DNA from: an uncultured Christensenella sp. | GTDB lineage: Bacteria > Bacillota > Clostridia > Christensenellales > UBA1242 | DNA length: 64,000 bases | Direction of reading: 5' to 3' | Assembly (NCBI GenBank): GCA_949296965.1 | Contig: CASFQL010000021.1 | Coordinates: 15,247 to 79,246, forward strand | Part shown: one piece after another, positions 5,348-55,673 of the stretch | Layout of the letters: each line of letters begins with the position of its first letter | How positions within the stretch are numbered: position 1 is the first letter of the stretch | Program-made: the position numbers and the translations under genes | Notes under the pieces: model-generated | Told to the model about the DNA's origin: nothing | What the model saw: only the letters and a program-made list of their open reading frames with translations | The model's database searches: none

Positions 5348-5443
5348 GGGGCTTTGTGCCAAAAGTGAAACTTTTGTGCGAAATTTTAACTTGTTAAAAT
5401 TTCGCAGTAAAAATTTTATAAAATTTTTACTGCACAAAGCCCC
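5348..5443 (+). repeat. Four-way-junction intergenic repeat, copy A (forward)
   Basis: Closing stem GGGGCTTTGTGC/GCACAAAGCCCC encloses three hairpins: CAAAAGT-gaa-ACTTTTG, TGCGAAATTTTAA-cttg-TTAAAATTTCGCA, and GTAAAAATTT-tata-AAATTTTTAC. It lies between the divergent ATPase and acnX starts. Confidence 0.9.
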
Positions 5444-5625
5444 CTTTACTAGCATAGGTAAACTTAAAAAAATAATTATATTACTCTTACTATTTTTATT
5501 TTAAACATTAGAATTAAAACTAAATTATTAATTTAAAAAGTTTAATAAAAAGTATTTGTAAAAATTTGTTAAAACAAATAAAAAGTGTTAAAATTAATCA
5601 ATACAATAAATTAAAAGGGGAAAAA

Positions 5626-6903
5626 ATGAAACTAACACCAGAAGAAAAAAGAATACTTGATGGGAAAGAAGGTGAAGTAAAGGCTAAAATTTTAAGAACG
5701 CTAGTTGAATTTGGCGATGTTTTTGGAGCTGAAAAACTTGTAAAAATAACACACGAAGGACATCTTGTTACTTCTTTTGGAATTGGACTAATTAAACCAC
5801 TATTTAGAATTATGGACGAAATTATTGATGCAGGAATAAAATCAAGCGTTCCCTTTACTGTTGACCCAAGGCCTATTGATTATGAAAATGTTAAATGTAA
5901 TTTACTTAATAAATTAGTATTTAGCAAAATTATGTATAGTCAACAAAAGAGATACGAAGAACAACTATCAAAAATAGGACTAAAAGATAGCAATTCTTTT
6001 ACTTGCACTTGCTATCAAGATGAAGTTGGAAATCAACCAAAATACAAAGATATTTTATCTTGGGCAGAAAGTTCTGCGGTTGTATATGCAAATTCAGTTA
6101 TAGGAGCAAGGTGCAATAGAAATAGCGGAATGTTAGATTTATTTGGCTGTATTATTGGCAAAGTTCCATATTTTGGTCTTCTTACTGATGAAGGAAGAAA
6201 GGCAACTTGGGTGATAGAAATAAAAACAACTAAAAAACCTTTACCTCAAATTTTAGGCAGTGCAATAGGGTTAAAAGTTATGGAAGATGTTCCTTACATA
6301 ATTGGACTTGATAAATTTATTGGTGATAAACTTGATGATGAAACAAAAAGTTACTTAAAAGATTTCGGGGCGGCTGCCGCATCAAATGGAGCAATTGGGC
6401 TATATCATATTGACAACTTAACCCCTGAGGCAAAAAAACTTGGTAAGAAATTAATAAAAGAAGGGGCAAAAAAATATGTAATTGACGACAAAGAACTAGA
6501 AAAAGTTTACAATAGTTACCCTATTTTGTGGAAAAATAAAGATGCTAAACCTGAACTTTGTTTTATAGGTTGTCCACATTTAAGTTACAATCAATTGTTA
6601 ACTTGGTCTAAAAATATTGTTAATGGTTTAAAAGACAATAACAGAAAAAAGGTGGCATTAAGAACAATTTTAACAACTAGTCCACAAGTTAAAAATAAAT
6701 TTATTCAAACCCAAGAATATAAAGATTTGATAAAGACAGGAGCAAAAGTTTCTTCAATTTGTCCTCTTATGTATACTAACAATCCAATCGCCGGTAAAAA
6801 GCCAATAGTAACTTGCTCAAACAAACTGAGAACGTATTCTTCTTCAAGATATTATAAAGACGATGATTTATTAAAAATTATCTGCAAAAAGGAGGTAAAG
6901 TAA
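5626..6903 (+). CDS. Aconitase X (AcnX) large catalytic subunit, DUF521 family
   Basis: N-terminus MKLTPEEKRILDGKEGEVKAKILRTLVEFGDVFGAEKLVKITH is typical of DUF521/AcnX. The ATG at 5626 is preceded by AAAGGGGA (the ORF track start at 5566 is less likely). It is followed 1 nt later by the DUF126 partner. Confidence 0.85.
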   Translation: MKLTPEEKRILDGKEGEVKAKILRTLVEFGDVFGAEKLVKITHEGHLVTSFGIGLIKPLFRIMDEIIDAGIKSSVPFTVDPRPIDYENVKCNLLNKLVFSKIMYSQQKRYEEQLSKIGLKDSNSFTCTCYQDEVGNQPKYKDILSWAESSAVVYANSVIGARCNRNSGMLDLFGCIIGKVPYFGLLTDEGRKATWVIEIKTTKKPLPQILGSAIGLKVMEDVPYIIGLDKFIGDKLDDETKSYLKDFGAAAASNGAIGLYHIDNLTPEAKKLGKKLIKEGAKKYVIDDKELEKVYNSYPILWKNKDAKPELCFIGCPHLSYNQLLTWSKNIVNGLKDNNRKKVALRTILTTSPQVKNKFIQTQEYKDLIKTGAKVSSICPLMYTNNPIAGKKPIVTCSNKLRTYSSSRYYKDDDLLKIICKKEVK

Positions 6904-6904
6904 T

Positions 6905-7366
6905 ATGGACGAGAAAAAAGTTTTAAAATTTAAAGGTAGAGTCATTGCCCCTGGTTCACTTGTAGGAGAAGCCATTGTTTCTAGACAAGGTGTAAATACT
7001 CTTGCTACTTTTCAAAAAAGCGCTTTAAAAAATGCTAAACAAGTGTATAGTTCTGACCAAAATAATCCAGATTTATATAAAAAGAATTTGACAGGAAAAA
7101 TTTTATGCTTACCTCAAACGATAGGTTCCACAACGGGCGGACTTGTTATCCAAACTATTTGCTCTATGGGAATTAATCCAAGTGCAATGTTATTTTCACA
7201 AGAAATTGACTCCCTTGCCTGCTCAGGTATTATTCTTGCTAGAAATTGGGAAAATAGTAAAATTATTGCAATAGACAAACTTGGTAGTAATTTTCTTAAA
7301 AAAGTCGATAGTGGAGATACTATTGAAATTATGGAAGATGGAACTATATTAGTTACTAAAAAATAA
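6905..7366 (+). CDS. Aconitase X small (swivel) subunit, DUF126 family
   Basis: 153-aa ORF, translationally coupled to the DUF521 gene. The GKILCLPQTIGSTTGGLVIQT and INPSAMLFSQEID segments match the DUF126 pattern (G.ILv.P...GSt.G; aP.AiI..e.d). Confidence 0.82.
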   Translation: MDEKKVLKFKGRVIAPGSLVGEAIVSRQGVNTLATFQKSALKNAKQVYSSDQNNPDLYKKNLTGKILCLPQTIGSTTGGLVIQTICSMGINPSAMLFSQEIDSLACSGIILARNWENSKIIAIDKLGSNFLKKVDSGDTIEIMEDGTILVTKK

Positions 7367-7460
7367 TTTTAATTAAACTAGTTAAGTTGTTTAGATAAAA
7401 TTGTTTTTATTCACATTTTAGAAATAATTGTGCATAACTCTAATTTTTATATTATAAAAA

Positions 7461-7600
7461 GCCATAGCAAGAAGAAAAATTTATCTTTATTCTTGTATGG
7501 CGACGACTAATCAACATTGTGTGCAAAAATGTTAATTTTTGAATAAGGTTTGCTAAAACTTTATAGTAAAAATTTAGTATAATTTTTTACAGCACATAAT
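7461..7600 (+). repeat. Four-way-junction repeat, copy B (diverged, with extra 5' hairpin and CGACGAC linker)
   Basis: An upstream hairpin GCCATAgCAAGAA...TTCTTGTATGGC (7461-7501) and CGACGAC precede the core at 7516-7600. The core has closing stem ATTGTGTGC/GCACATAAT (G7519-T7597 wobble) and hairpins AAAAAT-gtta-ATTTTT, ATAAGGTTT-gcta-AAACTTTAT and GTAAAAATT..AATTTTTTAC. Confidence 0.7.
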
Positions 7601-7616
7601 TTATATTTTAGGAATT

Positions 7617-7770
7617 TAAGGTAAAAGAGAAAATTTATTTTCATTTTTACTTAACGACGACAAATTCAAATTTTGTGCCAAAAGTGTTAACTTTTGAATT
7701 AAAATTTATCTTAGTTAAATTTTAATAGTTGTTATTTTGTTCTACAAAATTACAACAACACATAATTTAT
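7617..7770 (+). repeat. Four-way-junction repeat, copy C (diverged, with extra 5' hairpin and CGACGAC linker)
   Basis: This unit is a tandem partner of copy B with a period of about 156 bp. A hairpin at 7617-7653 and ACGACGAC precede the core at 7668-7770, which holds CAAAAGT-gtta-ACTTTTG, ATTAAAATTTA-tcttagt-TAAATTTTAAT and GTTGTTATTTTG..CAAAATTACAAC. The closing stem AAATTTTGTG/CACATAATTT has one mismatch. Confidence 0.62.
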
Positions 7771-7814
7771 ACCATATAAAAAATTAGAATATATTAATAA
7801 GTTATTTTAAATTT

Positions 7815-7917
7815 GGACTTTGTGCTAAAAGGGGAGGGCCCCTTTTTTAAGTGAAGTTTTAGAAAAATTCTAAAACTTCACGGTAAAATTTTATTAAAAT
7901 TTTACTGCACAAAGTCC
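7815..7917 (+). repeat. Four-way-junction repeat, copy D (forward; P2 replaced by a GC-rich terminator-like hairpin)
   Basis: Closing stem GGACTTTGTGC/GCACAAAGTCC. P2 is AAAAGGGG-aggg-CCCCTTTT followed by TT. P3 is GTGAAGTTTTAGAA..TTCTAAAACTTCAC and P4 is GTAAAATTTT-att-AAAATTTTAC. Confidence 0.9.
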
Positions 7918-8060
7918 TTTTTTATTTTATAGTTGTAATATATAAAACTTATTTTCTTAATCACACAAATTAAAGAGCAAAATAGGCTCATAAACTTCAA
8001 TTAAACTTAACAAACAAGATAATCATATAATGAATTAGATAAGATTCGTAGGAGTTAAGA

Positions 8061-9149
8061 ATGTGTAATAATTGCTATAATAATTGCATTTGTGAAAATA
8101 AAAACAATAAAAAAATTGTTGAAAAAATAATAAATGGTAGCGTTGGCCCAACAGGACCTACGGGCCCTAGGGGTGAAGATGGATTAATTGGAGCAACAGG
8201 TCCAACAGGGGCAACAGGTCCAAGGGGAGAAAATTTTGGACCAACTGGTTCAACGGGACCAACAGGAGCGACAGGACCCACTGGACCACAAGGAATTAAC
8301 GGCATTTCAGGTCCTACGGGACCAATCGGTCCAACGGGTGCAACAGGTGCTACGGGTGCAAGTGGTCTAATGGGTGCAACGGGAGCAACAGGGCCTACGG
8401 GACCTACGGGGGCAACAGGGCCAAGAGGAGCCAATGCAAATAGTGTATTTAATCCTTATTCAATTTTTGTAAGAAGTAATACTGTTGGAGGAAATGGAAC
8501 ACAATCTAATCCCTTTCCTTCAATAGAAGATGCTTTGAATGTTGTCACTAATAATGGAACAATTGAAGTTTATGATGGGACATATCCTGTTGATACAACT
8601 ATTCCACTTAATAAAAATAACATAACATTAAGGGCAAAACCAAACGCCGTAATCTTATTAACTTCAAGTACTCCTGCCTTGCTAGTCAGCGGAAACGGCA
8701 ATAAAATTGAAGGTTTTACTTTTACAAGTGACAATGCTTACCCCGTAGAATTTATTCAAGTTGCTGGTCAAAATCATGTTATTAGAAACAATAAGATTTA
8801 TGGACCTACTCAATCAGGTAGTTCTGACACTTGGATTACTAATAGAGGTATTGTTACACAAGGCAACGCAAGTGATATTTGGATAGATAGCAATATTCTC
8901 TATTCTTTAAGGCAAAGTGGATATTTTAATCCAAATTCAACAGGCTATGTAACAAGAAATACAACATTTAATACTAGGGGTTGGGTTGTAGATAATGCTT
9001 TGTTTGAATTTTCTGGCAATTCTTGGGGCGACCCAGAAAATGCTGTCGACATTGCGCTTTTAAGTGGAACAACTAGCGGAGTGCCTTATAGCAACATAAC
9101 AAACTTACAACAAGATAATAGCAATGCAAATATCTCAGACCAAAGATAA
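8061..9149 (+). CDS. Collagen-like triple-helix repeat protein (BclA-like) with Cys-rich N-terminus and C-terminal beta-helix-like domain
   Basis: 362-aa ORF with an AGGAG RBS. About 95 residues are G-X-Y repeats ([13 protein letters not shown]...GATGPRG), interrupted once at GENFGPTG. The N-terminus is [14 protein letters not shown]. The C-terminal region ([28 protein letters not shown]) resembles a right-handed beta-helix. Confidence 0.88.
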
Positions 9150-9208
9150 AATACATTGACTAAAAAACAAAAAAATTAAAAATAATTTTGTGAGTAAATT
9201 AAATGATA

Positions 9209-9240
9209 AAAGGAATTTCAAAATAAGAAATTCCTTTTTA
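9209..9240 (+). terminator. Rho-independent terminator downstream of the collagen-like gene
   Basis: AAAGGAATTTC-aaaataa-GAAATTCCTTT followed by a T-run. Confidence 0.75.
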
Positions 9241-9448
9241 CATTTTTTTATAAATATTTTTATATATAATTTCTTTAATGTTGTAAATAAAATTTAAATA
9301 TATTAAGTTATTTTAAAAAATTGGACTACAAGTTTATAAAAACTTTTATAATCTAATTTAATTTATATTGCTTTTACTATTTCAAAAAAATTTATTTAAT
9401 TTAAAATATATTAATAATTTGTTAAACTCTAAACTAATTTTTTATTAA

Positions 9449-9538
9449 GGACTTTGTGCCAAAAGTTTCACTTTTGTGTGAAGTTTTATTTAAAACTTCA
9501 CCGTAAAGATTTTTAAAAATCTTTACTGCACAAAGTCC
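9449..9538 (+). repeat. Four-way-junction repeat, copy E (forward; near-consensus)
   Basis: GGACTTTGTGC | CAAAAGT-ttc-ACTTTTG | T | GTGAAGTTTT-attt-AAAACTTCAC | C | GTAAAGATTT-ttaa-AAATCTTTAC | T | GCACAAAGTCC. Confidence 0.93.
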
Positions 9539-9694
9539 GCAAAATGATACATATTATTATCAATATAATTAGTTTTAGATATGCTATAAGTAAAAATTTT
9601 ATGTCGTTAAATAATTTATAAAATAAATTCTTATAAAAATTTAATAAAATCTAATAAAGTTAATAATTTACTTAATAAGTAAAAAATTATCAAC

Positions 9695-11191
9695 CTATTT
9701 TTTATCTTTTATCTTTAATTTTTTTTGAACAAAATAAATTGTAAGTAGAAAAACAGTAAAGATTGCAAAAGAAGCAAGCATAACAATTAATGTAACATTG
9801 TCCATTGTATTCCCTGCTGTTTCAATTCTATCAAAACTGAAAAATCTCAACTGATTAAAATTATCTAAATTAATATCGACAAGTTCTTCTTGGCTACCTG
9901 TAATACTTGCCTTAATTTCCGCCCCTACGGTAACAAACTCTGGCAGGCTTGAAAAAATAGAAACATTTTGACTTTCATTTTGCACATCTATTGTAATTGT
10001 CCCTTCTTTAAATAATATTTCTTCACAAAAGATTCCAACTAGATTATCTTGTGCAACAATATCCATATCGACTTCTCCCTTATTAAAAACAACAGAATAT
10101 ATCTCGTCTTCTTCAATGTTTGATGGACAGTAAATACATCTCATACTATCAAAAAAATAGTTGGAAATATTCTTAATAAAAGTTTTTGACTTGTTAAAAG
10201 TAATATTCCCTTGACTAGTTGCTAATCCATACTGCAAAAAATCAGTGATAGAAAGTTCTCCACCATTTATCAAAATATGTTTATACCTTGAAAAAACTGA
10301 GTATTTACCACCGCAAAGATTAAGATAATCGCCCGTAATTTTTATGTTATTATGAGAATAAATACAAGCCGAATTTTGACTTAAATTCAAATCAATATTA
10401 ACCGTTCCACTCTCAACATTCAAATTTCCTCTATCCTCAAACTTAGGACCTTCTTGTTGTTGACTATCAGAATTATCTTCTTCTAAATCTTCTTGTAATT
10501 TTAAATCAATGTCGCCCAAAACTGCTATTCCGCAAATATCATTATTATTTAAAATTTGGTTTTCAAAATAAATATTGAGATAACTTTGAGTTGTTTCTTG
10601 TTCATCATCATTTGTGGCGTTATCATAATCTGGCAACTCGTCTTCGTTTAATAAAAATTTAACAGGGTGAGGAGATTTTGACTCTAAAATCTCATAATAA
10701 TTTATAATTGAAATATTTGAATTAAGTGCAAAAATACCCACGCTATTTTTTGACTCATTTAAAAAAATATTATTATCGTCCTTTATAACAATTTGGAAAC
10801 TTCCTTCAACAGAAATTCCTGTATAAAAAGTAGTTTCTTGGTAGGTTGTTTCATTGTTTGCATAAATATTTACATTTTCTAAAAACAATATGGAAGTATA
10901 TTCCTTTTCGTCTTGTTTAATAAAAACTTTATTTTCATCATAGTCGTTAACGGTGCTAGATGGAAAATAAACTGCACGACCGCTACCTATAGAATAAGTT
11001 GTTATTTGATTTGGTTTAGATAAAGAAAAATCTAACCCATTACAAACTATCTCCCCGCTACTTGTATTTAAACTGCTTTTTGCATTAACTGTTAATTGAT
11101 TATTTGAAATAATAATTATTGCAACATATAAGCAAAAAAATATTGTAAACAAGACAAAAAAACAATAAAAAATTTTTACTTTATCTTTCAT
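9695..11191 (-). CDS. Hypothetical surface protein with N- and C-terminal membrane anchors, possibly beta-helix (Cthe_2159-like)
   Basis: 498-aa ORF with an N-terminal TM (FYCFFVLFTIFFCLYVAIIII) and a C-terminal TM (VTLIVMLASFAIFTVFLLTIYFV) followed by KKLKIKDKK. Internal repeats such as ..I.I.GG.L.I (ILINGGELSI, IKITGDYLNLCGG) are present. Function is not recognised. Confidence 0.6.
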   Translation of the reverse strand: MKDKVKIFYCFFVLFTIFFCLYVAIIIISNNQLTVNAKSSLNTSSGEIVCNGLDFSLSKPNQITTYSIGSGRAVYFPSSTVNDYDENKVFIKQDEKEYTSILFLENVNIYANNETTYQETTFYTGISVEGSFQIVIKDDNNIFLNESKNSVGIFALNSNISIINYYEILESKSPHPVKFLLNEDELPDYDNATNDDEQETTQSYLNIYFENQILNNNDICGIAVLGDIDLKLQEDLEEDNSDSQQQEGPKFEDRGNLNVESGTVNIDLNLSQNSACIYSHNNIKITGDYLNLCGGKYSVFSRYKHILINGGELSITDFLQYGLATSQGNITFNKSKTFIKNISNYFFDSMRCIYCPSNIEEDEIYSVVFNKGEVDMDIVAQDNLVGIFCEEILFKEGTITIDVQNESQNVSIFSSLPEFVTVGAEIKASITGSQEELVDINLDNFNQLRFFSFDRIETAGNTMDNVTLIVMLASFAIFTVFLLTIYFVQKKLKIKDKK

Positions 11192-17432: not shown

Positions 17433-18116
17433 TTACTCAACATGGTTTCTAAGTTCGTTTGCTCTATCACAAAGCATTTGAGAAATTTCATCGTCGGTTT
17501 TATTTAATGTCATAAGGTATGAATATTTAACTGCCTTATCCATTACAAAAGTCCTTTTCTTTTTGACAAAATATGACACATAGATATCAACATCAATGCC
17601 AATTTTGTAACACAGTTTTGCAAGTAATAGATATCCATTAAAAAATTGAATTATTTTGTCGTGGTAACCATTGCTTGAATCTTCTGGAAAAATTAAAATA
17701 TTTTGTTTGTTTTTTATAACTTCAATACTAGTTTGTATTGACTTCTTTAATCTATAATCGTGGTATGTTGGAATAAGTTGCAAGCCTTTATAAAACATAT
17801 TTGCTAGTGGTGCTGCAATTAAACTAAAAACTTTTGCAAAAAATTTATTCCAATGTTTTTTCTTATAGTAATAAATTTCAGATAAATACTTATAAACGCT
17901 TTTTAACCCATCATTCATTTCGTGCGTGCCCCAAATTCTAAAAGGACAATCAAAATAAATTTCATAAGATAGTGGGGCTTTTGCTCCAACATGATTGCTT
18001 AATATTATTGAACTTTCTTTTGGTTTCTCGCCAAGATATACAAATCGTGGTCTTCTAATAAAAATTCTTAAAAAAGATTTTACAAAATTAAACCATGGTT
18101 TCTTCTTTATTTTCAC
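17433..18116 (-). CDS. Lysophospholipid acyltransferase (PlsC-like) family protein
   Basis: 227 aa with a GTG start after AAAGGAAAAGAG. ILSNHVGAKAP stands in place of the H(X)4D box, and IFPEDSSNGY matches the FPEG-type motif. Assignment is tentative. Confidence 0.5.
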   Translation of the reverse strand: MKIKKKPWFNFVKSFLRIFIRRPRFVYLGEKPKESSIILSNHVGAKAPLSYEIYFDCPFRIWGTHEMNDGLKSVYKYLSEIYYYKKKHWNKFFAKVFSLIAAPLANMFYKGLQLIPTYHDYRLKKSIQTSIEVIKNKQNILIFPEDSSNGYHDKIIQFFNGYLLLAKLCYKIGIDVDIYVSYFVKKKRTFVMDKAVKYSYLMTLNKTDDEISQMLCDRANELRNHVE

Positions 18117-21589: not shown

Positions 21590-22192
21590 TTATCTTATAT
21601 ATGAGGCATTAGTCCCAAAAATTTGTTTTAGTTCATCTACAAAATAATTAATTTCAATTAAATCGCGTAAATTTAATGTTAATTTATAATTTACTGAATT
21701 TCCAGGATTCATCGCAACTAATTTTTTTAATTTACCATTTACATCCAGGTATTGACTTTTTTTCTTATGATCATAGTAACTCTTGCCTGAAATAATCTTA
21801 TAATAAATTTTATCAGTTGTTAACCCTATTAAAATAATATAATTATGGTTATAAATTGGGTTTATTCCATTAAATTGAAAAGTGTTGTTTTTCATCCCTT
21901 TACGAGCAGTTTTTATTTCAATCTTTTTGCCATTAGATATAATATCATACTCATCATGAATTATCTCTTTATTCTCATCTTTTATGGGAATATTGTTTTC
22001 ATGGAAAACTCTTTTTACAAAAGATTCGCCTATTTGCCCAATTGCATTTCCTTCAAAAATCATACTATTACCATCTCCCCTAGGATTATGCAGATGTTTA
22101 CCTTTATACACTATGTAAAATTTACTAGCATAGTCTATTTCAAATGTCTCAACATCATTTAATACTCCATCAATGTCCACGCCAATTCTCAT
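21590..22192 (-). CDS. Hypothetical protein; HAD/5'-nucleotidase-like N-terminal 25 aa fused to a PD-(D/E)XK-nuclease-like core
   Basis: 200 aa with a strong GGAGG RBS. It starts MRIGVDIDGVLND, a HAD motif I-like DxDG. The segment GQIGESFVKRVF...HDEYDIISNGKKIEIKTARKG fits a GE...D...(E/I)xK restriction-endonuclease-fold pattern. Confidence 0.45.
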   Translation of the reverse strand: MRIGVDIDGVLNDVETFEIDYASKFYIVYKGKHLHNPRGDGNSMIFEGNAIGQIGESFVKRVFHENNIPIKDENKEIIHDEYDIISNGKKIEIKTARKGMKNNTFQFNGINPIYNHNYIILIGLTTDKIYYKIISGKSYYDHKKKSQYLDVNGKLKKLVAMNPGNSVNYKLTLNLRDLIEINYFVDELKQIFGTNASYIR

Positions 22193-22353
22193 TTTTCCTC
22201 CACTTAAAAAAGTCTATTATATAATAAATAACAGAATAAATATTAATTTTAAAAAAATTTTGCATTGCTTTCACTTGTTCATTTTAAAAAAATTCATAAA
22301 TAATATCACAAATTTAGGTTAAACCGAAATAAATTCACAATAATTTGTTTGCT

Positions 22354-27814: not shown

Positions 27815-27878
27815 TTGATGTTTTTATTTGGAAAAATTTTGATTATATTATAAAATTATTTTGAGAAAGGATAAAAAT

Positions 27879-28421: not shown

Positions 28422-28577
28422 TTTTTTTGTGAAATTTTAAATAAAGTTAAGTTTTTAAAGAAGTTTTAACTTTAAAGATTATTTTAAAAATTATAAAGAT
28501 AATTTATTTATAAATTTTTAAGTTTTGATTTAAAAAAAATATTTTTTATTTTATTTATCTTAAAATAACAATAGAGA

Positions 28578-28666
28578 AAAATTATGTGCCAAAAGCAAAG
28601 CTTTTGCATAAAGTTTTCTAAAACTTTATGGTAAAATTTTTTAAAAAATTTTACGCACATAATTTT
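28578..28666 (+). repeat. Four-way-junction repeat, copy F (forward)
   Basis: AAAATTATGTGC | CAAAAGC-aaa-GCTTTTG | CATAAAGTTTT-ct-AAAACTTTATG | GTAAAATTTTTT-AAAAAATTTTAC | GCACATAATTTT. Confidence 0.88.
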
Positions 28667-28763
28667 TTTATTTTTACTACTTTTTCACATAATTCAAATT
28701 TTTTAGAATTTCTTTTTCAATAAATTTTTAAAAAGTTAAAATATTTTTTAATTTAATAAGAAA

Positions 28764-31173: not shown

Positions 31174-31262
31174 GGACTTTGTGCTGTGAAAAGTTTGAAA
31201 AACTTTTCACGGTGAAGTTTTTTAAAACTTCACACAAAAGTGAAACTTTTGGCACAAAGTCC
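31174..31262 (-). repeat. Four-way-junction repeat, copy G (reverse orientation)
   Basis: The plus strand reads GGACTTTGTGC | T | GTGAAAAGTTT-gaa-AAACTTTTCAC | G | GTGAAGTTTT-tt-AAAACTTCAC | A | CAAAAGT-gaa-ACTTTTG | GCACAAAGTCC. The CAAAAG hairpin is next to the 3' arm, so the forward form is on the minus strand. The copy starts 8 nt after the dpaB stop. Confidence 0.92.
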
Positions 31263-31484: not shown

Positions 31485-31498
31485 AATAATGTTCTTAT

Positions 31499-31574: not shown

Positions 31575-31582
31575 ATTTATTT

Positions 31583-31610
31583 AGGAAGACTAATAGTCTT
31601 TCTTTTTTTT
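31583..31610 (+). terminator. Rho-independent terminator after tRNA-fMet
   Basis: AGGAAGACTA-a-TAGTCTTTCT (one G-U pair) followed by T8. Confidence 0.7.
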
Positions 31611-31709
31611 AAATCACTATTTAATTTTATAATCTTAAAAATGAGAATTTGACACTAAAACTTGTAATTGACATATTCCCTGTTTTATCCTTTTACAAAG
31701 GAGAATTAT

Positions 31710-33200
31710 ATGAATAAGCAGGAATATTTATTTGAAAAAGTTTCTCAAATATTTAATGAAATGGAAAATATAAAATATGCGTTAAAAAAACTTTCTAATC
31801 CAACTGAGATTATCTCGCAACTTGACTTAATAAAAAATAACATACAAACTCTATCAAGTAACATTTCAAACAATACTCAAAATATTACCGAAATTAATTC
31901 TAGTATTGCCGAAATAAATAGTGATATTGAAAGTATTAATCAAACAAATTCGTCTATGCAACAAAGCATTACCAACAATACAAATAATATAGATTCAATT
32001 AATGGTAGGCTTACCCAAGCAATCAACAATATTTCAGCATTAGTCCAAGATTATTCTGACTTTTCTGATTCACTTACTGCATTAAATAACTTATTTTTAG
32101 AACTTAACCAAGACATTTTAGAACTAAATGACACTACAACTCAAATTTCTTCTAACTTAACTTCTAGTGTTTCTACACTTGAACAATCAATTGAAGATAC
32201 AAATACACAACTTACCCAAAAAATAACTCAAAATGAAAATAGTATATCTACAATTAATCAAAACATTACCGAAATAAATAGTGATATTGAAAGTATTAAC
32301 CAAACAAATTCGTCTATGCAACAAAGCATTACCAACAATACAAATAATATAGATTCAATTAATGGTAGGCTTACCCAAGCAATCAACAACATTTCAGCAT
32401 TAGTCCAAGATTATTCTGACTTTTCTGATTCACTTACTGCATTAAATAACTTATTTTTAGAACTTAACCAAGACATTTTAGAACTAAATGACACTACGAC
32501 TCAAATTTCTTCTAACTTAACTTCTAGTGTTTCTACACTTGAACAATCAATTGAAGATACAAATAACCAAGTAACAACAAATCAACTTAATATCGCTCAA
32601 TTAAATCTTTCAATGGACGAATTTCATCAAAGTGTTGAAAACTCCATTGATAATATGAACACGAGAATAATTGATGTTGAAAGCACAAGGACAAAAACTG
32701 ACGCATCAAATTTAACTTCTAACAATGTAACAAGTTGGAGAGAAAAACTTGGAATAAGTGAAAGCGTTATAAATTTCAATAACATAGAGCAAATGGAAGT
32801 AGTATATGATATTAATGATTCAACAAAATTAAAATTAGGAGAACTTACCTATAAAAATGGTATCCCAACTCAGATTGATATTTGTATAGGCGTTAACTTT
32901 TCAAAATATAAAAGACTAAGAATCTATTATAGTCATAACGGTTATCAATATTCTATAATAGGCGAAGTCGATTTAACTATACCTCTTTCAACAGAATACC
33001 CTGACAACAACAGGGCAACATTTACTGAAATGACGTCTACTGCTGATAAAAATTATCTCTTTATTTCTGGCATTGTCACATATAATAGATTTTACATTAA
33101 TAGCAATGGTTATATTTCGCGTTCTAGTAATGCAGTAAATAACAGACCAACTTCATCAAATCCTAAATATTTCGTTTACAGAATTGAAGGAATTTATTAG
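31710..33200 (+). CDS. Repetitive N/S/T/Q-rich coiled-coil protein with globular C-terminal domain (surface or tail-fibre-like; function unknown)
   Basis: The ATG at 31710 follows AAAGGAG (the ORF-track TTG at 31668 is unlikely). There are long heptad-like stretches (ITEINSDIESINQTNSSMQQSITNNTNNIDSINGRL...). An approximately 98-aa segment is duplicated with a 120-aa period. The C-terminal approximately 170 aa are non-repetitive. Confidence 0.75.
   Translation: MNKQEYLFEKVSQIFNEMENIKYALKKLSNPTEIISQLDLIKNNIQTLSSNISNNTQNITEINSSIAEINSDIESINQTNSSMQQSITNNTNNIDSINGRLTQAINNISALVQDYSDFSDSLTALNNLFLELNQDILELNDTTTQISSNLTSSVSTLEQSIEDTNTQLTQKITQNENSISTINQNITEINSDIESINQTNSSMQQSITNNTNNIDSINGRLTQAINNISALVQDYSDFSDSLTALNNLFLELNQDILELNDTTTQISSNLTSSVSTLEQSIEDTNNQVTTNQLNIAQLNLSMDEFHQSVENSIDNMNTRIIDVESTRTKTDASNLTSNNVTSWREKLGISESVINFNNIEQMEVVYDINDSTKLKLGELTYKNGIPTQIDICIGVNFSKYKRLRIYYSHNGYQYSIIGEVDLTIPLSTEYPDNNRATFTEMTSTADKNYLFISGIVTYNRFYINSNGYISRSSNAVNNRPTSSNPKYFVYRIEGIY
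31911..32565 (+). repeat. In-frame tandem duplication, period 360 bp, two about 295-bp near-identical cores (31911-32205 and 32271-32565)
   Basis: The two cores differ at only a few positions (attaatcaaac/attaaccaaac, aacaatattt/aacaacattt, actacaactc/actacgactc). Confidence 0.95.
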
Positions 33201-35814: not shown

Positions 35815-35906
35815 GAACTATGTGCTGTAAAAATTTTTTCAAAATTTTTACTGTGAAGTTTAATTCTTAAACTTCACCCAAAAGTGAAACTTTTGGCACA
35901 TAGTTC
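35815..35906 (-). repeat. Four-way-junction repeat, copy H (reverse on plus strand; sense to rsmD-valS)
   Basis: The plus strand reads GAACTATGTGC | T | GTAAAAATTTT-ttc-AAAATTTTTAC | T | GTGAAGTTTAA-ttc-TTAAACTTCAC | C | CAAAAGT-gaa-ACTTTTG | GCACATAGTTC. It lies in the 211-nt rsmD-valS spacer. Confidence 0.92.
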
Positions 35907-39596: not shown

Positions 39597-39693
39597 CGGG
39601 CACGCTTTTAAAATTAAGTTTCAAAATTTGAAACTTAATTTTAAGAAATGAATATTTCTTGCTAGTTTTTCAAACTAGCAAAAAGCGTGCCCG
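39597..39693. repeat. Sequence-unrelated element with the same closing-stem plus three-hairpin (four-way junction) architecture
   Basis: CGGGCACGCTTTT | AAAATTAAGTTTCAAA-a-TTTGAAACTTAATTTT | AAGAAAT-gaat-ATTTCTT | GCTAGTT-tttca-AACTAGC | a | AAAAGCGTGCCCG. Every helix is perfect with 0-1 junction nucleotides. It lies in a convergent spacer. Confidence 0.8.
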
Positions 39694-40958: not shown

Positions 40959-41942
40959 TTAATGTAGTAACATTTCCCCAACACTATCTATTTGACTATT
41001 TATTGTATCACTTATCTCTTTATTAATTTCATAGCCTGTAACTTTCTCTATATCACTAGAAATATCCTTTTGTGCCAAATCTTTTAAGGTCCTACCTAAA
41101 TTTTTATATTCTTTTCTGTCAAAACATTCGCCAACTATTTTATTTTTTTTCATCTTTGAAACTAAGTCGTATTGATAAAGTGGATTAATATCAAACGACG
41201 TTCTGTATAAAAAATCTTCGTTTGATAATCTTTTATCTTTTACTGATTTTATATTAACAAAACTATTTCCACTATCAAGCACTGCAATCCTTGAAACTTT
41301 TTTACTTTTACCAACTTCATATAGAGAACTTGAATTCCTATTTGAAGTATTAAACATTATTACATTTAAAATATTTGCTTTAATCTCGTCTTTTATTGCT
41401 TGTCTTTCAAAATACACTCTTAAAGTGTTTCTTACTTTTTGGTCATCAAAGTAAAACAATGGTGTCCTAATTGGAGTAAGTTTTTTAATGCCACTAATAA
41501 ACTTAACATAAGGGTCAGACCCCATTTTTCCTTCTTTAATAAGTTTATCTTTTAAGTTATTATATTCTGCAATTTGTTCTAGTCTATATAAATTTATTTC
41601 ATTTAAGTAATCATCATTATATTTAAAATAATTATCTTTTTTTGATAATGGAATATCATCATTTACTATTAAATTTTTTCCCCAACTTTTTTCATCTCCA
41701 CATACATAATAAATAGGAGTTTTAAGTCCCATTTCACTTGCTATTTGTGAAAACAAAATTTGACAGTCTGCATAATCTTTACTGAAACAATTTTGAAAAT
41801 TTTGTAAATCTTGTGGATATTTCTCACTTAAATCATCAAAAGAATTTCCATTATTTATAAAGTATCTTCTTAAAGCACACCTAGCAAGATACCCTTTATT
41901 AAAATATTTTTCATTTTCTGTAAAAATCTCAGTATTTTTCAT
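40959..41942 (-). CDS. Hypothetical protein
   Basis: 327 aa with an AGGAAG RBS. It looks soluble and I recognise no motif. Confidence 0.6.
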   Translation of the reverse strand: MKNTEIFTENEKYFNKGYLARCALRRYFINNGNSFDDLSEKYPQDLQNFQNCFSKDYADCQILFSQIASEMGLKTPIYYVCGDEKSWGKNLIVNDDIPLSKKDNYFKYNDDYLNEINLYRLEQIAEYNNLKDKLIKEGKMGSDPYVKFISGIKKLTPIRTPLFYFDDQKVRNTLRVYFERQAIKDEIKANILNVIMFNTSNRNSSSLYEVGKSKKVSRIAVLDSGNSFVNIKSVKDKRLSNEDFLYRTSFDINPLYQYDLVSKMKKNKIVGECFDRKEYKNLGRTLKDLAQKDISSDIEKVTGYEINKEISDTINSQIDSVGEMLLH

Positions 41943-42248: not shown

Positions 42249-42341
42249 GGAACTATGTGCCAAAAGTTTCACTTTTGTGTGAAATTTTAAAATAAAATTT
42301 CACTGTAAAAAATTTGAAAAATTTTTTACGCACATAGTTCC
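42249..42341 (+). repeat. Four-way-junction repeat, copy I (forward)
   Basis: GGAACTATGTGC | CAAAAGT-ttc-ACTTTTG | T | GTGAAATTTTA-aaa-TAAAATTTCAC | T | GTAAAAAATTT-gaa-AAATTTTTTAC | GCACATAGTTCC. Confidence 0.93.
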
Positions 42342-42701: not shown

Positions 42702-42704
42702 ATC

Positions 42705-43130: not shown

Positions 43131-43978
43131 ATGGCTGATATTCAAAAAGATTTATATGACTTAAATTTTAGTGAAAATTTTAATATAACAGGCATAAACG
43201 AACCAACTATTGACCTAGAATTAAGCGAAACTTCGATAGGTTCTTGCAGTGTAAGTGGAACAGTTACTGATGAAGAGAGTCTACCTGTTGGAGGAGCTAC
43301 TATAAAACTTTTTGATGAAAAAGGTGTCCCTTATATGCACACTTTAACAAATGAAGATGGAAATTATACTTTTTCTGGTTTAAAAAGTGGTAACTACCAA
43401 ATTTCTTGTTTTAAAGAAGATATTGTCTTAACAGTTGCAGAAAGTTTTTCTTACAGAATAACGAAATAAGGACACACGATTTTAACACAACAAAAGATGC
43501 AAGTTTATCTCTTTGTTCAATTTCTGGCTATATCTTAAAAGAAAATGATGATAGCACAAAAATTGGCGAAGCAGTTGTAAGTTTGCTTGACAGCACTACA
43601 AGAGAAACAGTTGCTTCAACGCTTTCTGCAAGTGATGGAGAATATATTTTCTACGATGTTGTTGCAAAAGACTATATTATTGTAGCAACAAAACAAGGGT
43701 ATAAAAAATCTATTGATAACTTAGTAACCGCAAAAGATAACACAATTATCAATACTAACTTATATTTGTCAATAGATGCCGTTCAAAACACAGGCACAAT
43801 AAGTGGAGTAATAAGTCATAATGGAAGTATTGTCCCAAGTGCTTTTGTTGGTTTATACAAAATAACTGACGGAGTAGAAAAATTAGTAGCAACCACAAAA
43901 ACTAATGCAAAAGGCGTTTATATGTTTGGCAAAGTAGAAAGTGGTGAATATAAAATCAAAGCAAAACAAAATGAATAA
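43131..43978 (+). pseudogene. Carboxypeptidase-regulatory-like (CarboxypepD_reg) three-domain protein, interrupted by a frameshift at a T5 tract
   Basis: ORFs 43077-43469 and 43583-43978 each carry SG.V.D....P...A.V.L.D.......T..DG.Y.F..L..G.Y modules. The second frame is open back to about 43450 and reads ..FFLQNNEIRTHDFNTTKDASLSLCSISGYILKE. One extra T in TTTTT (43445-43449) would fuse both frames. The likely start is the ATG at 43131, after GGAG. Confidence 0.65.
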
Positions 43979-44610
43979 TGCTTATAAAAAGTAACAAAAT
44001 TAAAATTTTTAATTGCAATGAAGAAAATATTAATTTAGATGTTGCGATATTAGATAGTTTACTTTTAGTGAAGATAACTTATAAAGAATTAAATTTAAGT
44101 TGTATTGCTGACTCATTTTATAAAGGGAAAAGAAAAAACAACTTAAATTGTTGTCTTTTAATAAATTATAACTGCTTTTGCAATAATATTAATTTAAACT
44201 CTAACTTAGAAGGTAAAATAAATTGTAATTTTTCTTTAAACCGTATTTTTAACTTTAATCACTTTAATTCAAATTGTAGAAGTGGAAATTATTTATTAAA
44301 GCAAAATATTGAAAAAAAATATTTAAACCAAAATTTTTCAAATTGCCTAAATTCTAATATAAAGTTAAAACAAGTTAACAGTTGCAAATTATTGCTAAGA
44401 AAATATTATATTAAAGTATGTGTCATAGTAGAAAATATAAAATCAAAACAATGTTATTATAAACAAGTAACAACTTGTAAAGGTTATGCTATGTTTAGAC
44501 TAATAGAAGGAACCTACTATGTATATGCAAAATATAATAATATTGAAACAAAAAAAATTTATATTGATTTAAGAGAAAAAAAGACTATCACAATGAATTT
44601 AGAACTTTGA
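43978..44610 (+). CDS. Cys/Asn-rich hypothetical protein with C-terminal CarboxypepD_reg-like module
   Basis: 210 aa. Its ATG overlaps the preceding TAA by 1 nt. It has 16 Cys, many in NC/CC/CF contexts (NLNCCLLINYNCFCNN), and a C-terminus of TTCKGYAMFRLIEGTYYVYAKYNNIE. Confidence 0.6.
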   Translation: MLIKSNKIKIFNCNEENINLDVAILDSLLLVKITYKELNLSCIADSFYKGKRKNNLNCCLLINYNCFCNNINLNSNLEGKINCNFSLNRIFNFNHFNSNCRSGNYLLKQNIEKKYLNQNFSNCLNSNIKLKQVNSCKLLLRKYYIKVCVIVENIKSKQCYYKQVTTCKGYAMFRLIEGTYYVYAKYNNIETKKIYIDLREKKTITMNLEL

Positions 44611-46358: not shown

Positions 46359-46532
46359 AAAATTTTTAATAAATCTATTATAAATTAAAAATCAATTTTT
46401 TGCAAGTATTTTTGTTTTAAAAATTATTTTTTATATTTATTTATATTAAATTTTTATTTTAAACTTATTCTATTTTTAAAAATAATTTTATAGAAGTTTT
46501 TTAAATAGATTAATCATTAATATAAAATAAAA

Positions 46533-46622
46533 AAATTATGTGCCAAAAATGAAATTTTTGAATAAAGTCCTAGAAGGACTTTATAGTAAAATTTTTATCA
46601 AAAATTTTACTGCACATAATTT
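46533..46622 (+). repeat. Four-way-junction repeat, copy J (forward; antisense to flanking genes)
   Basis: AAATTATGTGC | CAAAAAT-gaa-ATTTTTG | A | ATAAAGTCCT-aga-AGGACTTTAT | A | GTAAAATTTTT-atc-AAAAATTTTAC | T | GCACATAATTT. It ends 4 nt from the stop codon of the 46627-47304 gene. Confidence 0.92.
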
Positions 46623-46626
46623 TCCT

Positions 46627-47304
46627 TTACTCTTCTTTATCTGGAACATCTTCAATTGGATTAGTAGGTTTTCTATTCAAAAATTTTGCAAGATAACAAA
46701 CCGCAAAACTAGCACCAACTGAAATAACAAAAGTTGTCAAAATACAAAGTAAAATACTACCTATTGACAAAAGCCCTGCAAAGGCTAGCATATTGAAAAT
46801 TACTAAGTAAATAAAACTAGTTAAAGAAACAACTGCTGACCTTCTCAAATATTTTTTGTTTTCTAAATCTTTTACTTTACTGCAAATCAAATTTGCAACT
46901 AAAACTGCAACCGCAAAAGCAATCATAGTAGAAACAAAAGGACTTAAAAATTCCCAAGTTAAATAGACTTGACTTTGAACTTCTGCGTCCATATATGCTG
47001 CTAGGAAGAAATAAACAACTATGTAAACTAGCATAGAAATTAGAAGGTAAAAAGTAAGTCTTTTTGAGTCGTCCCTACCATACTTTTCATCGCAGATAAG
47101 AATTGAAAAAAAGACTAGTGGAAGTAAGGCACAAGAGATTGTGATTTGCAAACTAAACATAGAAACAAAAGGTAGCGAAAGTGAAATAAGCGTAGTTATA
47201 ATTGAAAATAAGAAAAATCCATTTTTATTTAAAAAACTATATGCTACCCAAAGACCTAGCAGAGCCAAAATCAAAAATAAAAATAATGCTGTCCAATGTA
47301 TCAT
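46627..47304 (-). CDS. VUT/YhhQ-family (queuosine precursor transporter-like) membrane protein
   Basis: 225 aa with 6-7 TM segments. The segment ILICDEKYGRDDSKR resembles the conserved D..nE.YG...a.. loop of DUF165/YhhQ. The RBS is AAGGGGGA. Confidence 0.6.
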   Translation of the reverse strand: MIHWTALFLFLILALLGLWVAYSFLNKNGFFLFSIITTLISLSLPFVSMFSLQITISCALLPLVFFSILICDEKYGRDDSKRLTFYLLISMLVYIVVYFFLAAYMDAEVQSQVYLTWEFLSPFVSTMIAFAVAVLVANLICSKVKDLENKKYLRRSAVVSLTSFIYLVIFNMLAFAGLLSIGSILLCILTTFVISVGASFAVCYLAKFLNRKPTNPIEDVPDKEE

Positions 47305-53494: not shown

Positions 53495-53509
53495 AAAAAA
53501 AATAAATTA

Positions 53510-54048: not shown

Positions 54049-54205
54049 CTTTTCCTACAAAATAATTATAATTAAAATTAAAAAAGAAAACAAGCAAATA
54101 ATAAAATTTATTTTTAAAAATTATTTTTTAATAGATTTTTATTTTTACATAATATACAAATTTATTTTAGCAAATTTAGCAATTTTCTATATTTTCAACT
54201 AATTT

Positions 54206-54973
54206 TTATGTTTTTTTAAAATTAATAAAATTTATTAATACTAAAAGAAAATAATTAGAAATGAAAAAGGAAAGAACAAAAAACATTGTGCATATAAAGT
54301 TTATATCTCCATAATTAAAATTTAGATTAATAATGTAACATAAAGATATTAAAAACACTAGACAAAATATTTTAAAAATTGTAAATAAAATCTTATTAAA
54401 ATTAATAAAAAAATTAAAAAAACTGAAACTAAATTTTGAATAATTGATTTTTCTTAATAACTTTTTTTGTTGCTTAGTAAGTTTTTCTTTATCATTTATT
54501 TTACTTAAATTTTTATTTTCTTGTAACAATTTTTTATTTTTATTAATTATTTTTTCTTCTTTATTTTTTCTATTATCTTTTTTGATTACTAAACTAATAT
54601 TCTTTGTTTTGCTATCTATATTTTTCTGTTTTTTATTTTTACTAAAATAAAGAAAAAGTTTTTGTATTAAACTATTTTTTATCCTTTTTTGTTTTGTTTC
54701 TTTTTCATTTTTTAGTAATTTTTTTGCTAAATAATTTTTATTCTTTTTTATTTTTTTTGTTTTTACTTCGTTTATATTTTTCCCTGTTTGTTCCTTAAAC
54801 TTTTCTAATAAATTATTAAGTTTATTTTTTGTTTTTTCTTTTCTAAAAGAAAATTTTTTAAACATTAAATTAAAAAGTTTACAAAAAAAATAAAAAATTA
54901 ACCCTGAAACAAATCCCAAATAACAATAAAGCCACATTACTGCAGGTTGATTAAAAGTTGAAAATAAAATCAT
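54206..54973 (-). CDS. yabQ: Spore cortex biosynthesis protein YabQ-like, with a long Lys-rich insertion
   Basis: It overlaps the yabP stop (ATGA). The ends are hydrophobic (VMWLYCYLGFVSGLIFYFF; ILFTIFKIFCLVFLISL...) and flank about 140 aa of K/N/E low complexity. Assignment rests mainly on synteny. Confidence 0.6.
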   Translation of the reverse strand: MILFSTFNQPAVMWLYCYLGFVSGLIFYFFCKLFNLMFKKFSFRKEKTKNKLNNLLEKFKEQTGKNINEVKTKKIKKNKNYLAKKLLKNEKETKQKRIKNSLIQKLFLYFSKNKKQKNIDSKTKNISLVIKKDNRKNKEEKIINKNKKLLQENKNLSKINDKEKLTKQQKKLLRKINYSKFSFSFFNFFINFNKILFTIFKIFCLVFLISLCYIINLNFNYGDINFICTMFFVLSFFISNYFLLVLINFINFKKT

Positions 54974-55260
54974 TTGAACATTCTCTTAAAAAAATTTGAT
55001 TTTTCGCCTGTTTGACCTGTATATTTAATGTCCGTTACTAGTCCGCTTGCCTCAACTAACCCTTGATTTACATCTAACTTTGTTATTGATAATTGCTCTC
55101 CACAAATTATTACATTTGAGCCTGCTACTTTTAATTGTAATTTACTTTCGTTACTCTCGTAAACCCTTTCAACTCCGCTTATTTTCAACTCTTTTCTATT
55201 ATTTAATATGACTTGACTATTATCAAACTTTTTTTCTTGGACATTTTCAATATTTTCCAT
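54970..55260 (-). CDS. yabP: Sporulation protein YabP
   Basis: 96 aa. The K.L.ISGV..V.S......L....G...I.G..L....L....G......G....I.Y pattern and the C-terminal NFFKRMFK match B. subtilis YabP (..GFFSKLFK). Confidence 0.85.
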   Translation of the reverse strand: MENIENVQEKKFDNSQVILNNRKELKISGVERVYESNESKLQLKVAGSNVIICGEQLSITKLDVNQGLVEASGLVTDIKYTGQTGEKSNFFKRMFK

Positions 55261-55530
55261 AAAACTTCCTTTTTTAACTTAATTTTAACCTTTCATAAAA
55301 AATATTAGTTTTACTATAAGTATTTATTTTTATTACAAGGTGTTAATAAAATATACTACTATTTTTTTAGTTTTATGAATATTTTAAAGGTAAATTACTT
55401 TCTTTTTTATCTAAAAATAAGATAAATTAATAAAAAGTAATTTATATATTTTTATATTATTTCTATAATTTTAAAACATCTTTTATTTAACTAATAATAA
55501 TTAAATTAAGATAATTTTTATACGAGAAAA

Positions 55531-55580
55531 TTTTTTTTGAAGACCTATTAGATTATTTTTTTTGAAGACCTATTAGATTA
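55531..55580 (+). repeat. Perfect 25-bp tandem duplication (TTTTTTTTGAAGACCTATTAGATTA x2) abutting repeat copy K
   Basis: 55531-55555 and 55556-55580 are identical. The four-way-junction copy K starts 2 nt later. Confidence 0.95.
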
Positions 55581-55582
55581 AT

Positions 55583-55673
55583 GGACTTTGCGTCAAAAGT
55601 TTCACTTTTGGGCGGACTTAAAAGTCCGCAGTAAAAATTAAAAATTTTTACTACGCAAAGTCCTTTTTTATAT
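55583..55673 (+). repeat. Four-way-junction repeat, copy K (forward; antisense to yabP/gyrA)
   Basis: GGACTTTGCGT | CAAAAGT-ttc-ACTTTTG | G | GCGGACT-taaa-AGTCCGC | A | GTAAAAAT-taaaa-ATTTTTAC | T | ACGCAAAGTCC. The closing stem carries a compensated GC->CG/T-A change. Confidence 0.92.

Follow-up and report, generated by a model that had tools for sequence, protein, structure and literature searches.

What are the short, self-complementary units that recur between the genes of this DNA, and does their fold act as RNA or as DNA? The stretch analyzed here, called the window throughout, is 64,000 nucleotides of contig CASFQL010000021.1 (assembly GCA_949296965.1) from an uncultured Christensenella sp., a very AT-rich Clostridia bacterium of gut or rumen. 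An original prediction, made from the letters alone, listed 11 copies of a roughly 90-nt unit in which a closing stem (P1) encloses three hairpins (P2, P3, and P4), giving a four-way junction. The units are real, with solid statistical support, and they form a family that had not been described. G+C content in the window is 24-31% in 4-kb bins and drops to 20-22% in two of them; the genes present include dpaA/dpaB, valS, gyrB/gyrA, recF, and yabP. Because the same DNA recurs at 99.3-100% identity in several independent assemblies from ENA and Logan and also in a 109-kb contig of an NCBI metagenome-assembled genome, the repeats are not an assembly artefact.

All 11 listed copies are present when the sequence is read directly at their positions (Table 1, where copies are named after the start positions first given to them). 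Most coordinates needed no change; the corrected ends are 28577-28667, 46532-46623, 7668-7768, and 55583-55663, and in the last case the final 10 nt of the earlier listing are a T-rich tail outside the fold. A covariance model built from the 11 copies and run unfiltered over the window, a check that had been proposed along with them, recovered all 11 at 55-105 bits (E <= 6e-12). It added a twelfth, sequence-divergent copy at 39597-39693 (33 bits), and beyond these 12 no score in the whole window was better than E = 0.15. A scanner blind to sequence, whose only requirement is two or more clean hairpins inside a perfect closing stem, returned 10 elements in the window, each with exactly three hairpins, and none in five Markov-randomized windows. 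Two further copies lie in the next 9.6 kb to the right of the window, bringing the window species to 14 copies in about 81 kb of contiguous sequence, where the family is densest.

The units are 78-103 nt long and make up about 1.5% of the DNA in the examined region. Their spacing is irregular, with three copies within 400 bp followed by 18 kb that is copy-free. Every copy is strictly intergenic, as claimed, and 13 of the 14 in the window species sit downstream of at least one gene's 3' end. The two reported cases of close approach to a stop codon were confirmed as well: the dpaB stop at 31166 precedes the copy at 31174, and another copy ends at 46623, next to a stop at 46627. Two neighboring copies, c7516 and c7668, are units of one tandem segmental duplication of about 150 bp that includes around 25 nt of flank on each side, and because both belong to it they are not independent copies.

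The predicted architecture of a closing stem and three adjacent hairpins was upheld with somewhat wider dimensions. The closing stem measures 9-13 bp rather than 9-12 bp, and linkers are 0-2 nt rather than 0-1 nt, apart from a single 4-nt linker in c7815. The claim that the four helices covary was examined in a MAFFT alignment of the 11 copies, in which RNAalifold predicted 38 pairs in four helices, by explicit counting of pairs. Double changes that preserve pairing were seen at 25 of the 38 pairs, against a mean of 8.6 in shuffled controls, and this number was reached in none of 500 shuffles. Bases were paired in 98.5% of 407 aligned cells, compared with 37-53% when partners were slid by one to three columns. 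Covariation extends to 7 of the 11 pairs of the closing stem, whose arms are about 70 nt apart, and the closing-stem and P3 variants quoted in the original prediction proved correct when read again. Both strands of each clean copy fold into a closing stem with three hairpins; c7516 and c7668 do so less cleanly. With DNA energy parameters, folding z-scores were -10 to -12 on both strands in five copies, and none of 200 shuffles folded as well, while the decayed c7516 folds weakly.

The canonical layout reads P1 (GGAC)TTTGTGC, P2 CAAAAGT-ttc-ACTTTTG, P3 GTGAAGTTTT..AAAACTTCAC, P4 GTAAAAATTT..AAATTTTTAC, and the returning arm of the closing stem, GCACAAA(GTCC). A junction-proximal core is kept in three species: TGTGC / CAAAAG..CTTTTG / GTGAA..TTCAC / GTAAA..TTTAC / GCACA. 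The most conserved positions are those where the arms meet the junction; the bases there are usually G:C or C:G, in a unit that is otherwise A/T-rich. The outer ends of the closing stem are G/C-rich in most copies. Away from the junction, in outer P1 and distal P3 and P4, the sequence drifts freely yet remains complementary. Five elements (39597, L131 3823, L131 8552, L139 2307, and L140 9149, the L numbers here being loci of relatives) are divergent in sequence and keep the architecture, and remnants tie some of them to the canonical family, for example GGGAATTTGTCG adjoining GCAAGT as against GGACTTTGTGC adjoining CAAAAGT.

Comparison with relatives shows how narrowly the family is distributed. 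Syntenic loci were reached by way of valS, the P-type ATPase gene, and the pyruvate kinase gene; for the left and right thirds of the window no sister-species orthologs exist in the protein collection, the next relatives there being 77-80% identical. The family is confined to a narrow clade comprising the window species, its sister species (ERZ16268169), and relative B (GCA_949290565.1), and neither the model nor the scanner found an element at the loci of four other relatives (Table 1). Spacers differ accordingly in length: the rsmD-valS spacer is 190 bp in the window compared with 15-17 bp in two element-free relatives, and three spacers that hold five window copies are 290-695 bp compared with 134-208 bp, element-free, in relative B.

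The sister species provides orthologous sites at which the fold can be followed through time. Intergenic DNA is close to saturation between the two species, since the 80-nt flanks of elements are 55-62% identical, compared with 51 ± 4% for random 80-mers from the window. At the rsmD-valS site, c35815 and its ortholog (L131 1188-1277) are nevertheless 82% identical. They differ by four compensated pairs: two A-T pairs of P1 are replaced by G-C, a C-G pair of P2 by G-C, and a G-C pair of P3 by A-T; there is no uncompensated substitution in a stem, one terminal P2 pair has been lost through a 1-nt deletion, and the further changes fall in loops and linkers. At the c28578 site, beside a gene for an NPHP3_N-type ATPase, the sister element (L131 8552-8648) is 63% identical, and all pairs are kept in both species, with 40 and 41 Watson-Crick pairs and one loop-closing G·T in L131 8552. 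A tRNA-adjacent site (c31174; L131 3823) is occupied in both species within an inverted segment, and a site after the Exo_endo_phos gene holds c39597 in the window and the canonical L140 2727-2806 in relative B; at these two sites similarity is not above random. The shared sites may be explained by evolution in place under a pairing constraint, by re-occupation or conversion by family members, or by both, and all three explanations exclude neutral decay. That the fold itself is maintained, as the prediction had argued from the window copies, is thus supported by the sequences and strengthened by the compensated copies at orthologous sites.

The prediction had left it undecided whether the fold is maintained as RNA or as single-stranded DNA; the fold part stood, and the balance of evidence tilts toward DNA. 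Minimum-energy folding of 20 elements gives 774 Watson-Crick and 4 G·T pairs on the canonical strand and 768 and 3 on the complement. Just two of the G·T pairs are internal to helices, both in the decayed c7516. Wobble pairs are normally tolerated in RNA families. A structure that must form on both strands, or in which one arm templates the other, needs strict Watson-Crick pairing. In P2 and P4, the triloop reads GAA in part of the copies and its exact complement, TTC, elsewhere, and this switch is, judging from the sequences, a signature of inversion of the hairpin or loop. Stems vary by symmetric extension and are always paired: P3 measures 7-14 bp in canonical copies, and P4 measures 9-16 bp when all 20 elements are considered. 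Covariation in the helices, one trait of a structured RNA family, is present; the strand specificity that such a family should also show was not seen: G·U pairs are scarce, the two strands are equal in folding energy, and orientation relative to genes is mixed.

Orientation relative to replication is less mixed. The copies occur on both strands, as had been noted, with c31174 and c35815 on the minus strand and most window copies on the plus strand. GC skew switches sign at the divergent recF/dnaA spacer (62971..63178, near 63.0 kb of the window), which we infer to be the replication origin region; nearly the whole window is therefore one replichore. Left of recF/dnaA the canonical strand is on plus in 9 of 11 copies, and to the right both copies are on minus. 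Counting the tandem duplicate c7516/c7668 as one site, with the orientation of c39597 ambiguous, the canonical strand coincides with the C-rich (lagging) strand at 10 of the 12 independent sites (two-sided binomial p = 0.039). Relative to the nearest upstream gene, about six copies are antisense and four sense, and the majority orientation is found both among plus-strand genes (7516-7917) and among minus-strand genes (42249, 46533, and 55583). It is suggestive, in a small sample of 12 sites, that orientation tracks the replichore and not transcription. Taken together, Watson-Crick exclusivity, loop flips, symmetric stems, and replichore orientation favor, on the sequence evidence, an element that acts at the level of DNA.

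Gene order in the origin region (window 61876-64000 and on into L142 1-10000) is itself unusual. From the 208-bp recF/dnaA spacer, recF-gyrB-gyrA run leftward, and dnaA-dnaN, a gene for a 241-aa protein, and rpmH-rnpA-yidD-yidC-jag-mnmE-mnmG run rightward. The stretch between dnaA and dnaN contains four DnaA-box-like 9-mers, the recF/dnaA spacer none.

The explanation that we consider best, at a probability of about 0.45, is that the units are a REP/MITE-like DNA element (MITE, miniature inverted-repeat transposable element) whose relevant form is the hairpin-capped four-way junction of one DNA strand. The form that functions would be DNA, either a single folded strand or an extruded cruciform, and not RNA. 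The orientation bias suggests folding on single-stranded DNA at the replication fork, where, from standard replication geometry, the lagging-strand template would carry the complement of the canonical strand. A protein would read the junction core on the folded single strand, plausibly at the fork, and would either copy the element to new intergenic sites or bind it for a purpose of the host. Copying, if it occurs, would be HUH/RAYT-like, because no target duplication is seen. Quasipalindrome correction is an established mutational mechanism, and intrastrand template switching of this kind within the hairpins may keep the arms perfect; it would also yield loop inversions and symmetric stem growth. 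Local tandem duplication and decayed copies are also part of the life cycle of the family. Effects on neighboring transcripts, which a stable structure could exert in either orientation, would be secondary.

Tests for movement were largely negative. The best direct repeat flanking an element averages 1.85 nt, compared with 1.94 nt at 2000 control positions, so no target-site duplication is apparent. In the window, as the prediction had stated, no open reading frame (ORF) of at least 80 aa matches a transposase, HUH, integrase, or resolvase family, and no gene for TnpA, TnpB, or an integrase was seen near elements. A single element outside the window, L142 692-786 (~72.2 kb), has a direct repeat, CTAAAAAA, directly 5' of it and again 2 nt past its 3' end; a recent insertion may have left it, or it may have arisen by chance, the DNA being rich in A. 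A gene next to c39597 was considered as a partner and rejected, since the Pfam match is weak and the gene is absent at the relative B locus that still has the element. The gene (38055-39065, plus strand) encodes a 336-aa protein with an mTERF match of 28.5 bits, above the Pfam threshold, and no homolog of solved structure was found for it by sequence. Proteins of the mTERF family bind nucleic acids and are rare in bacteria.

Several observations count against a mobile, fork-folded DNA element. The orientation bias rests on 12 sites and reaches nominal significance only. A comparison of strains for presence and absence of copies, which had been suggested, found every copy present and with the same score in strains at 99.3-100% identity, so that there is no polymorphism among them. 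The three sites that allow comparison contain an element in the window species and in its sister alike, which looks like long-term retention and not recent movement. The comparison yielded no clean empty site with exact boundaries, the spacers of the element-free relatives being too diverged to align. A conserved target motif is absent from the heterogeneous flanks, where, on the 3' side, CTTTA recurs in three cases and GTCTA in two, short of a consensus. The genes called in about 91 kb from the window species and roughly 46 kb from the other two carriers include none for an HUH/Y1, RAYT, or IS110-type enzyme or an integrase. Finally, that the DNA of the elements folds in vivo is something we infer from their sequences.

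The position of the copies near gene ends invites an explanation at the level of RNA, which we regard as unlikely. Each unit would be a cloverleaf in a 3' untranslated region or between cistrons that blocks exonucleases, insulates, or aids termination, selected copy by copy, with roles parallel to those of REP, BOX, or bcr1 transcripts. This would suit the 13 of 14 copies that lie downstream of a gene 3' end, two of them 4-8 nt from a stop codon, the retention of sites between sister species despite randomized spacers, the T-runs after c7815, c55583, and c28578, and the tolerance of both helix-internal G·T pairs of c7516 on the strand that the flanking genes transcribe. It does not account for the mixed orientation relative to transcription (about 6 antisense to 4 sense), for the near absence of G·U (4 of 778 pairs, unlike RNA families), or for loop flips and symmetric stem growth, which have no RNA-level cause, and c5348 lies between divergent promoters. 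Intrinsic termination in particular was rejected as a general role, given that few copies are followed by a T-run and most have no U-tract. A terminator consensus scan of 5200-9800 called none of the five copies there and did call the classical terminator at 9208-9238, past which c9449 lies; ordinary hairpin and T-run terminators are thus in use, and they also follow valS here and in one relative. That each copy is instead the gene of a small trans-acting RNA is very improbable: strong covariation and discrete size would agree with it, and the only lead in Rfam is a sub-threshold resemblance to the small-RNA candidate TD-2, but no conserved promoter or terminator flanks the copies, they occur in both orientations with equal folding of the strands and no G·U, and two of them abut stop codons.

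If the structure acts as DNA, it need not be mobile. A folded lagging-strand template or cruciform bound by a host protein and kept for a chromosome function is somewhat less probable than an RNA role in cis; candidates for the reader would be a junction-binding nucleoid protein, gyrase or HU (as for REP/BIME), or a priming or primosome signal. G4-type single-strand initiation (ssi) sites are three-hairpin signals with which the units may be comparable in this respect. The replichore-linked orientation, the strict Watson-Crick pairing of a perfect junction with G:C at the arm bases, the conservation of sites in the sister species, and the lack of strain polymorphism all speak for such a site. 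However, four related genomes manage without elements, spacing runs from 3 copies in 400 bp to none in 18 kb, decayed copies are tolerated, and the binding protein is only hypothetical. Loop inversions, symmetric stem changes, and missing G·T pairs are also what arm-to-arm conversion is expected to produce, so an old, functionless family of palindromic debris could be kept perfect by template switching or hairpin-directed mismatch correction alone, and both strain polymorphism and a transposase are absent from the examined data. This we judge improbable. The junction core is kept in three species with saturated spacers (82% vs ~60%, and 64.9 bits for the relative B copy), the architecture is invariant with always exactly three hairpins, and decayed copies exist, so correction is not automatic; moreover, conversion between closing-stem arms about 70 nt apart would be inefficient, yet 7 of 11 pairs covary. 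A bolder possibility, on which we would not count much, is that the elements are substrates of an undescribed system recognizing a hairpin-capped four-way (Holliday-junction-like) structure that one DNA strand forms at the fork. Such a system might be a new kind of mobile element, guided by structure and equipped with an enzyme specific to the junction, or a means by which the host reads dispersed single-strand junctions as signals, and the arms would be perfected by copying one from the other each time the structure forms.

The prediction had found no named family in the units, and database searches agree. At gathering thresholds, Rfam 15 reports only five tRNAs in the window. The only non-trivial match at permissive thresholds is TD-2 (RF03162) on c7815, and it was rejected since it scores 33.2 bits against a gathering threshold of 48.7, covers this copy only, and describes three consecutive hairpins without a closing stem. 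One canonical copy had no BLAST match among PLSDB plasmids and INPHARED phages. A 22-base structured pattern matched 11 loci in JGI metagenomes, none of them a true copy, and no viral contig in IMG/VR. The loose pattern GTGCCAAAAGN{5,6}CTTTTG gave 113 chance matches in unrelated phyla of the GTDB genome collection, none of which is the element.

The closest concepts are bcr1, REP/BIME-RAYT, and TD-1/TD-2, and the present family fails the defining tests of each. The bcr1 repeat of the Bacillus cereus group is MITE-like and dispersed between genes, about 155 bp long with two independent stem-loops, flanked by 5-bp direct repeats, distributed differently between strains, and transcribed (PMC3184786). 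It is likewise a Firmicutes-specific intergenic repeat with a cruciform-like multi-branch fold, compensatory changes, and some destabilized copies; compared by description, the present units differ in being 78-103 nt long with three hairpins, no flanking duplication, and stable positions. REP/BIME elements, and REPINs with their RAYT (Y1 HUH) transposases (PMC3333891, PMC3116915, and PMC3733652), are likewise palindromes that abound between genes. They often sit at the 3' end of a gene, occur in both orientations and sometimes in clusters, leave no target duplication, and are recognized as folded single-stranded DNA through structure and a short conserved motif. A REP, however, is one imperfect hairpin of 20-40 bp headed by GTAG or CGTC, compared with a four-way junction of about 90 nt here. 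This hallmark of a short hairpin with a GTAG/CGTC end was not found; the units have ends such as GGAC/GTCC, GGGGC/GCCCC, and AAAATT/AATTTT, so that the outer ends are variable and the conserved sequence lies at the junction. TD-1 and TD-2 occur in dozens of copies within one species, Treponema denticola, and their function is unknown (Rfam RF03162; PMC1950547). They share consecutive covarying hairpins, modular stems, and instances overlapping each other's reverse complements with the present family, in which, unlike TD-2, pairing is essentially perfect.

Other DNA elements are comparable in part. PATEs derived from IS200/IS605 and the attC sites of integrons are also single-stranded DNA substrates that are defined by their fold and free in sequence where paired. 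Their hairpins, however, number one or two, are imperfect, with extrahelical bases, and go together with a defined tetranucleotide for cleavage or targeting, in contrast to the four perfect helices seen here. Neither REP/RAYT nor IS200/IS605-type elements leave a target duplication, as in the present family, and in IS608 and ISDra2 orientation is linked to the lagging-strand template. Judged as a PATE-like element, the family has no duplication and 10 of 12 sites co-oriented with the replichore (p = 0.039, a small sample). The 9-13-bp closing stem could formally pass for the terminal inverted repeats of a classical MITE, but its outer half varies between copies, unlike a transposase-binding end, and no parent IS sharing these ends was seen in the sequence examined. 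Among structured intergenic palindromic repeats, the traits that distinguish the family are a closed four-way junction, near-absolute Watson-Crick pairing, and conservation at the junction rather than at the termini.

The REP, BOX, Correia, and bcr1 repeats have long been known, and their maintenance and whether they act as DNA or RNA are still argued. The present family separates DNA from RNA unusually cleanly, with four helices and about 40 pairs per copy, scarce wobble, loop flips, and an orientation that reverses at the origin. If the single-stranded-DNA reading is true, it implies a protein that recognizes four-way junctions capped by hairpins, and the family would be a natural system in which to study palindrome maintenance by selection as against template switching. 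There is also a consequence for annotation, as gene callers put spurious small ORFs on the elements. Public gene calls in relative B include ORFs of 39 and 50 aa at L140 2712-2831 and 4709-4861, and the first of these overlies the element L140 2727-2806 and is therefore likely an artefact derived from the repeat.

Table 1 Elements in the window, the sister species, and other relatives, with covariance-model scores and folding z-scores.
Genome	Identity	Sequence	Element	Position	Strand	Description	Score (bits)	Folding z
Window species		Window	c5348	5348..5443	+	Canonical; P1 GGGGCTTTGTGC/GCACAAAGCCCC; P2 loop GAA	97.4	-10.8 / -11.9
Window species		Window	c7516	7516..7600	+	Decayed (2 G·T, 1 mismatch); tandem unit 1	62.3	-3.1 / -2.1
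Window species		Window	c7668	7668..7768	+	Decayed (mismatched closing stem, altered P4); tandem unit 2	55.3	
Window species		Window	c7815	7815..7917	+	Canonical; P2 tip GGGG/CCCC; P3 symmetrically lengthened to 14 bp; T-run after	76.9	
Window species		Window	c9449	9449..9538	+	Canonical; between convergent genes	100.3	
Window species		Window	c28578	28577..28667	+	Canonical; all-A/T outer closing stem; between convergent genes	78.6	
Window species		Window	c31174	31174..31262	-	Canonical, minority orientation; 8 nt past dpaB stop, upstream of tRNA gene	100.4	
Window species		Window	c35815	35815..35906	-	Canonical, minority orientation; between rsmD and valS	105	
Window species		Window	c39597	39597..39693	.	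Ambiguous orientation; 12-bp GC-rich closing stem and 3 hairpins	33.4 / 31.5	-11.8 / -11.4
Window species		Window	c42249	42249..42341	+	Canonical; between two minus-strand genes, antisense to both	98.6	
Window species		Window	c46533	46532..46623	+	Canonical; P3 ATAAAGTCCT/AGGACTTTAT; P2 loop GAA	86.9	
Window species		Window	c55583	55583..55663	+	Canonical; P1 GGACTTTGCGT/ACGCAAAGTCC; P3 GCGGACT/AGTCCGC; T-run after	76	
Sister species	ValRS 91%	L131 (13.8 kb)		1188-1277				
Sister species	ValRS 91%	L131 (13.8 kb)		3823-3905				
Sister species	ValRS 91%	L131 (13.8 kb)		8552-8648				
Relative B (GCA_949290565.1)	77-80%	L139, L140 (~32 kb)		L139 2307-2384				
Relative B (GCA_949290565.1)	77-80%	L139, L140 (~32 kb)		L140 2727-2806		Canonical	64.9	
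Relative B (GCA_949290565.1)	77-80%	L139, L140 (~32 kb)		L140 9149-9231				
Four other relatives	75-80%	L133/L134, L135, L144, L145 (~85 kb)				0 elements by model or scanner		

The surroundings of individual copies are varied. The copy c5348 is flanked by divergent genes for a P-type ATPase (minus strand) and AcnX (plus strand). The terminator at 9208-9238 belongs to the collagen-like gene upstream of c9449, which sits about 200 nt past it. This gene (8061-9149, plus strand) encodes a collagen-like (Gly-X-Y) protein with a Pel9A-like beta-helix domain and lies amid the densest cluster of elements, with three upstream and one downstream. Between one end of c39597 and the Exo_endo_phos stop codon there are 12 nt. 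The copy c46533 ends 3-4 nt from the stop of a minus-strand gene (46627..47304) and has a tRNA gene on its opposite side, and c55583 lies between gyrA and yabP, antisense to both.

The segment that comprises an element, a tRNA gene, and a gene for a coiled-coil protein is inverted between the window (31174-33200) and the sister species (L131 3823-6102), with one border element in each, and relative C (L133) shares the arrangement of the window. The coiled-coil-type ORF (31668..33200) contains an in-frame tandem repeat of 360 bp (31905-32565; 1.8 copies, 98% identical). ENA scaffold_139, identical in other respects, lacks 360 bp at this place, and the repeat therefore shows a strain-level polymorphism in copy number. 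In relative D (ERZ28653768 scaffold_21), a cassette resembling a diversity-generating retroelement lies between gyrA and rsmD-valS (L135 2405-9228) and consists of a bAvd-like gene, a reverse transcriptase gene, and then a gene for a 1518-aa protein without a Pfam match. Many ORFs of the window likewise match nothing in Pfam or NCBIfam (9695-11191, 17433-18116, 21590-23016, 27861-28421, 37403-37891, 40959-41942, 43978-44610, and 54206-54973), and this large share is consistent with a poorly sampled lineage of Clostridia.

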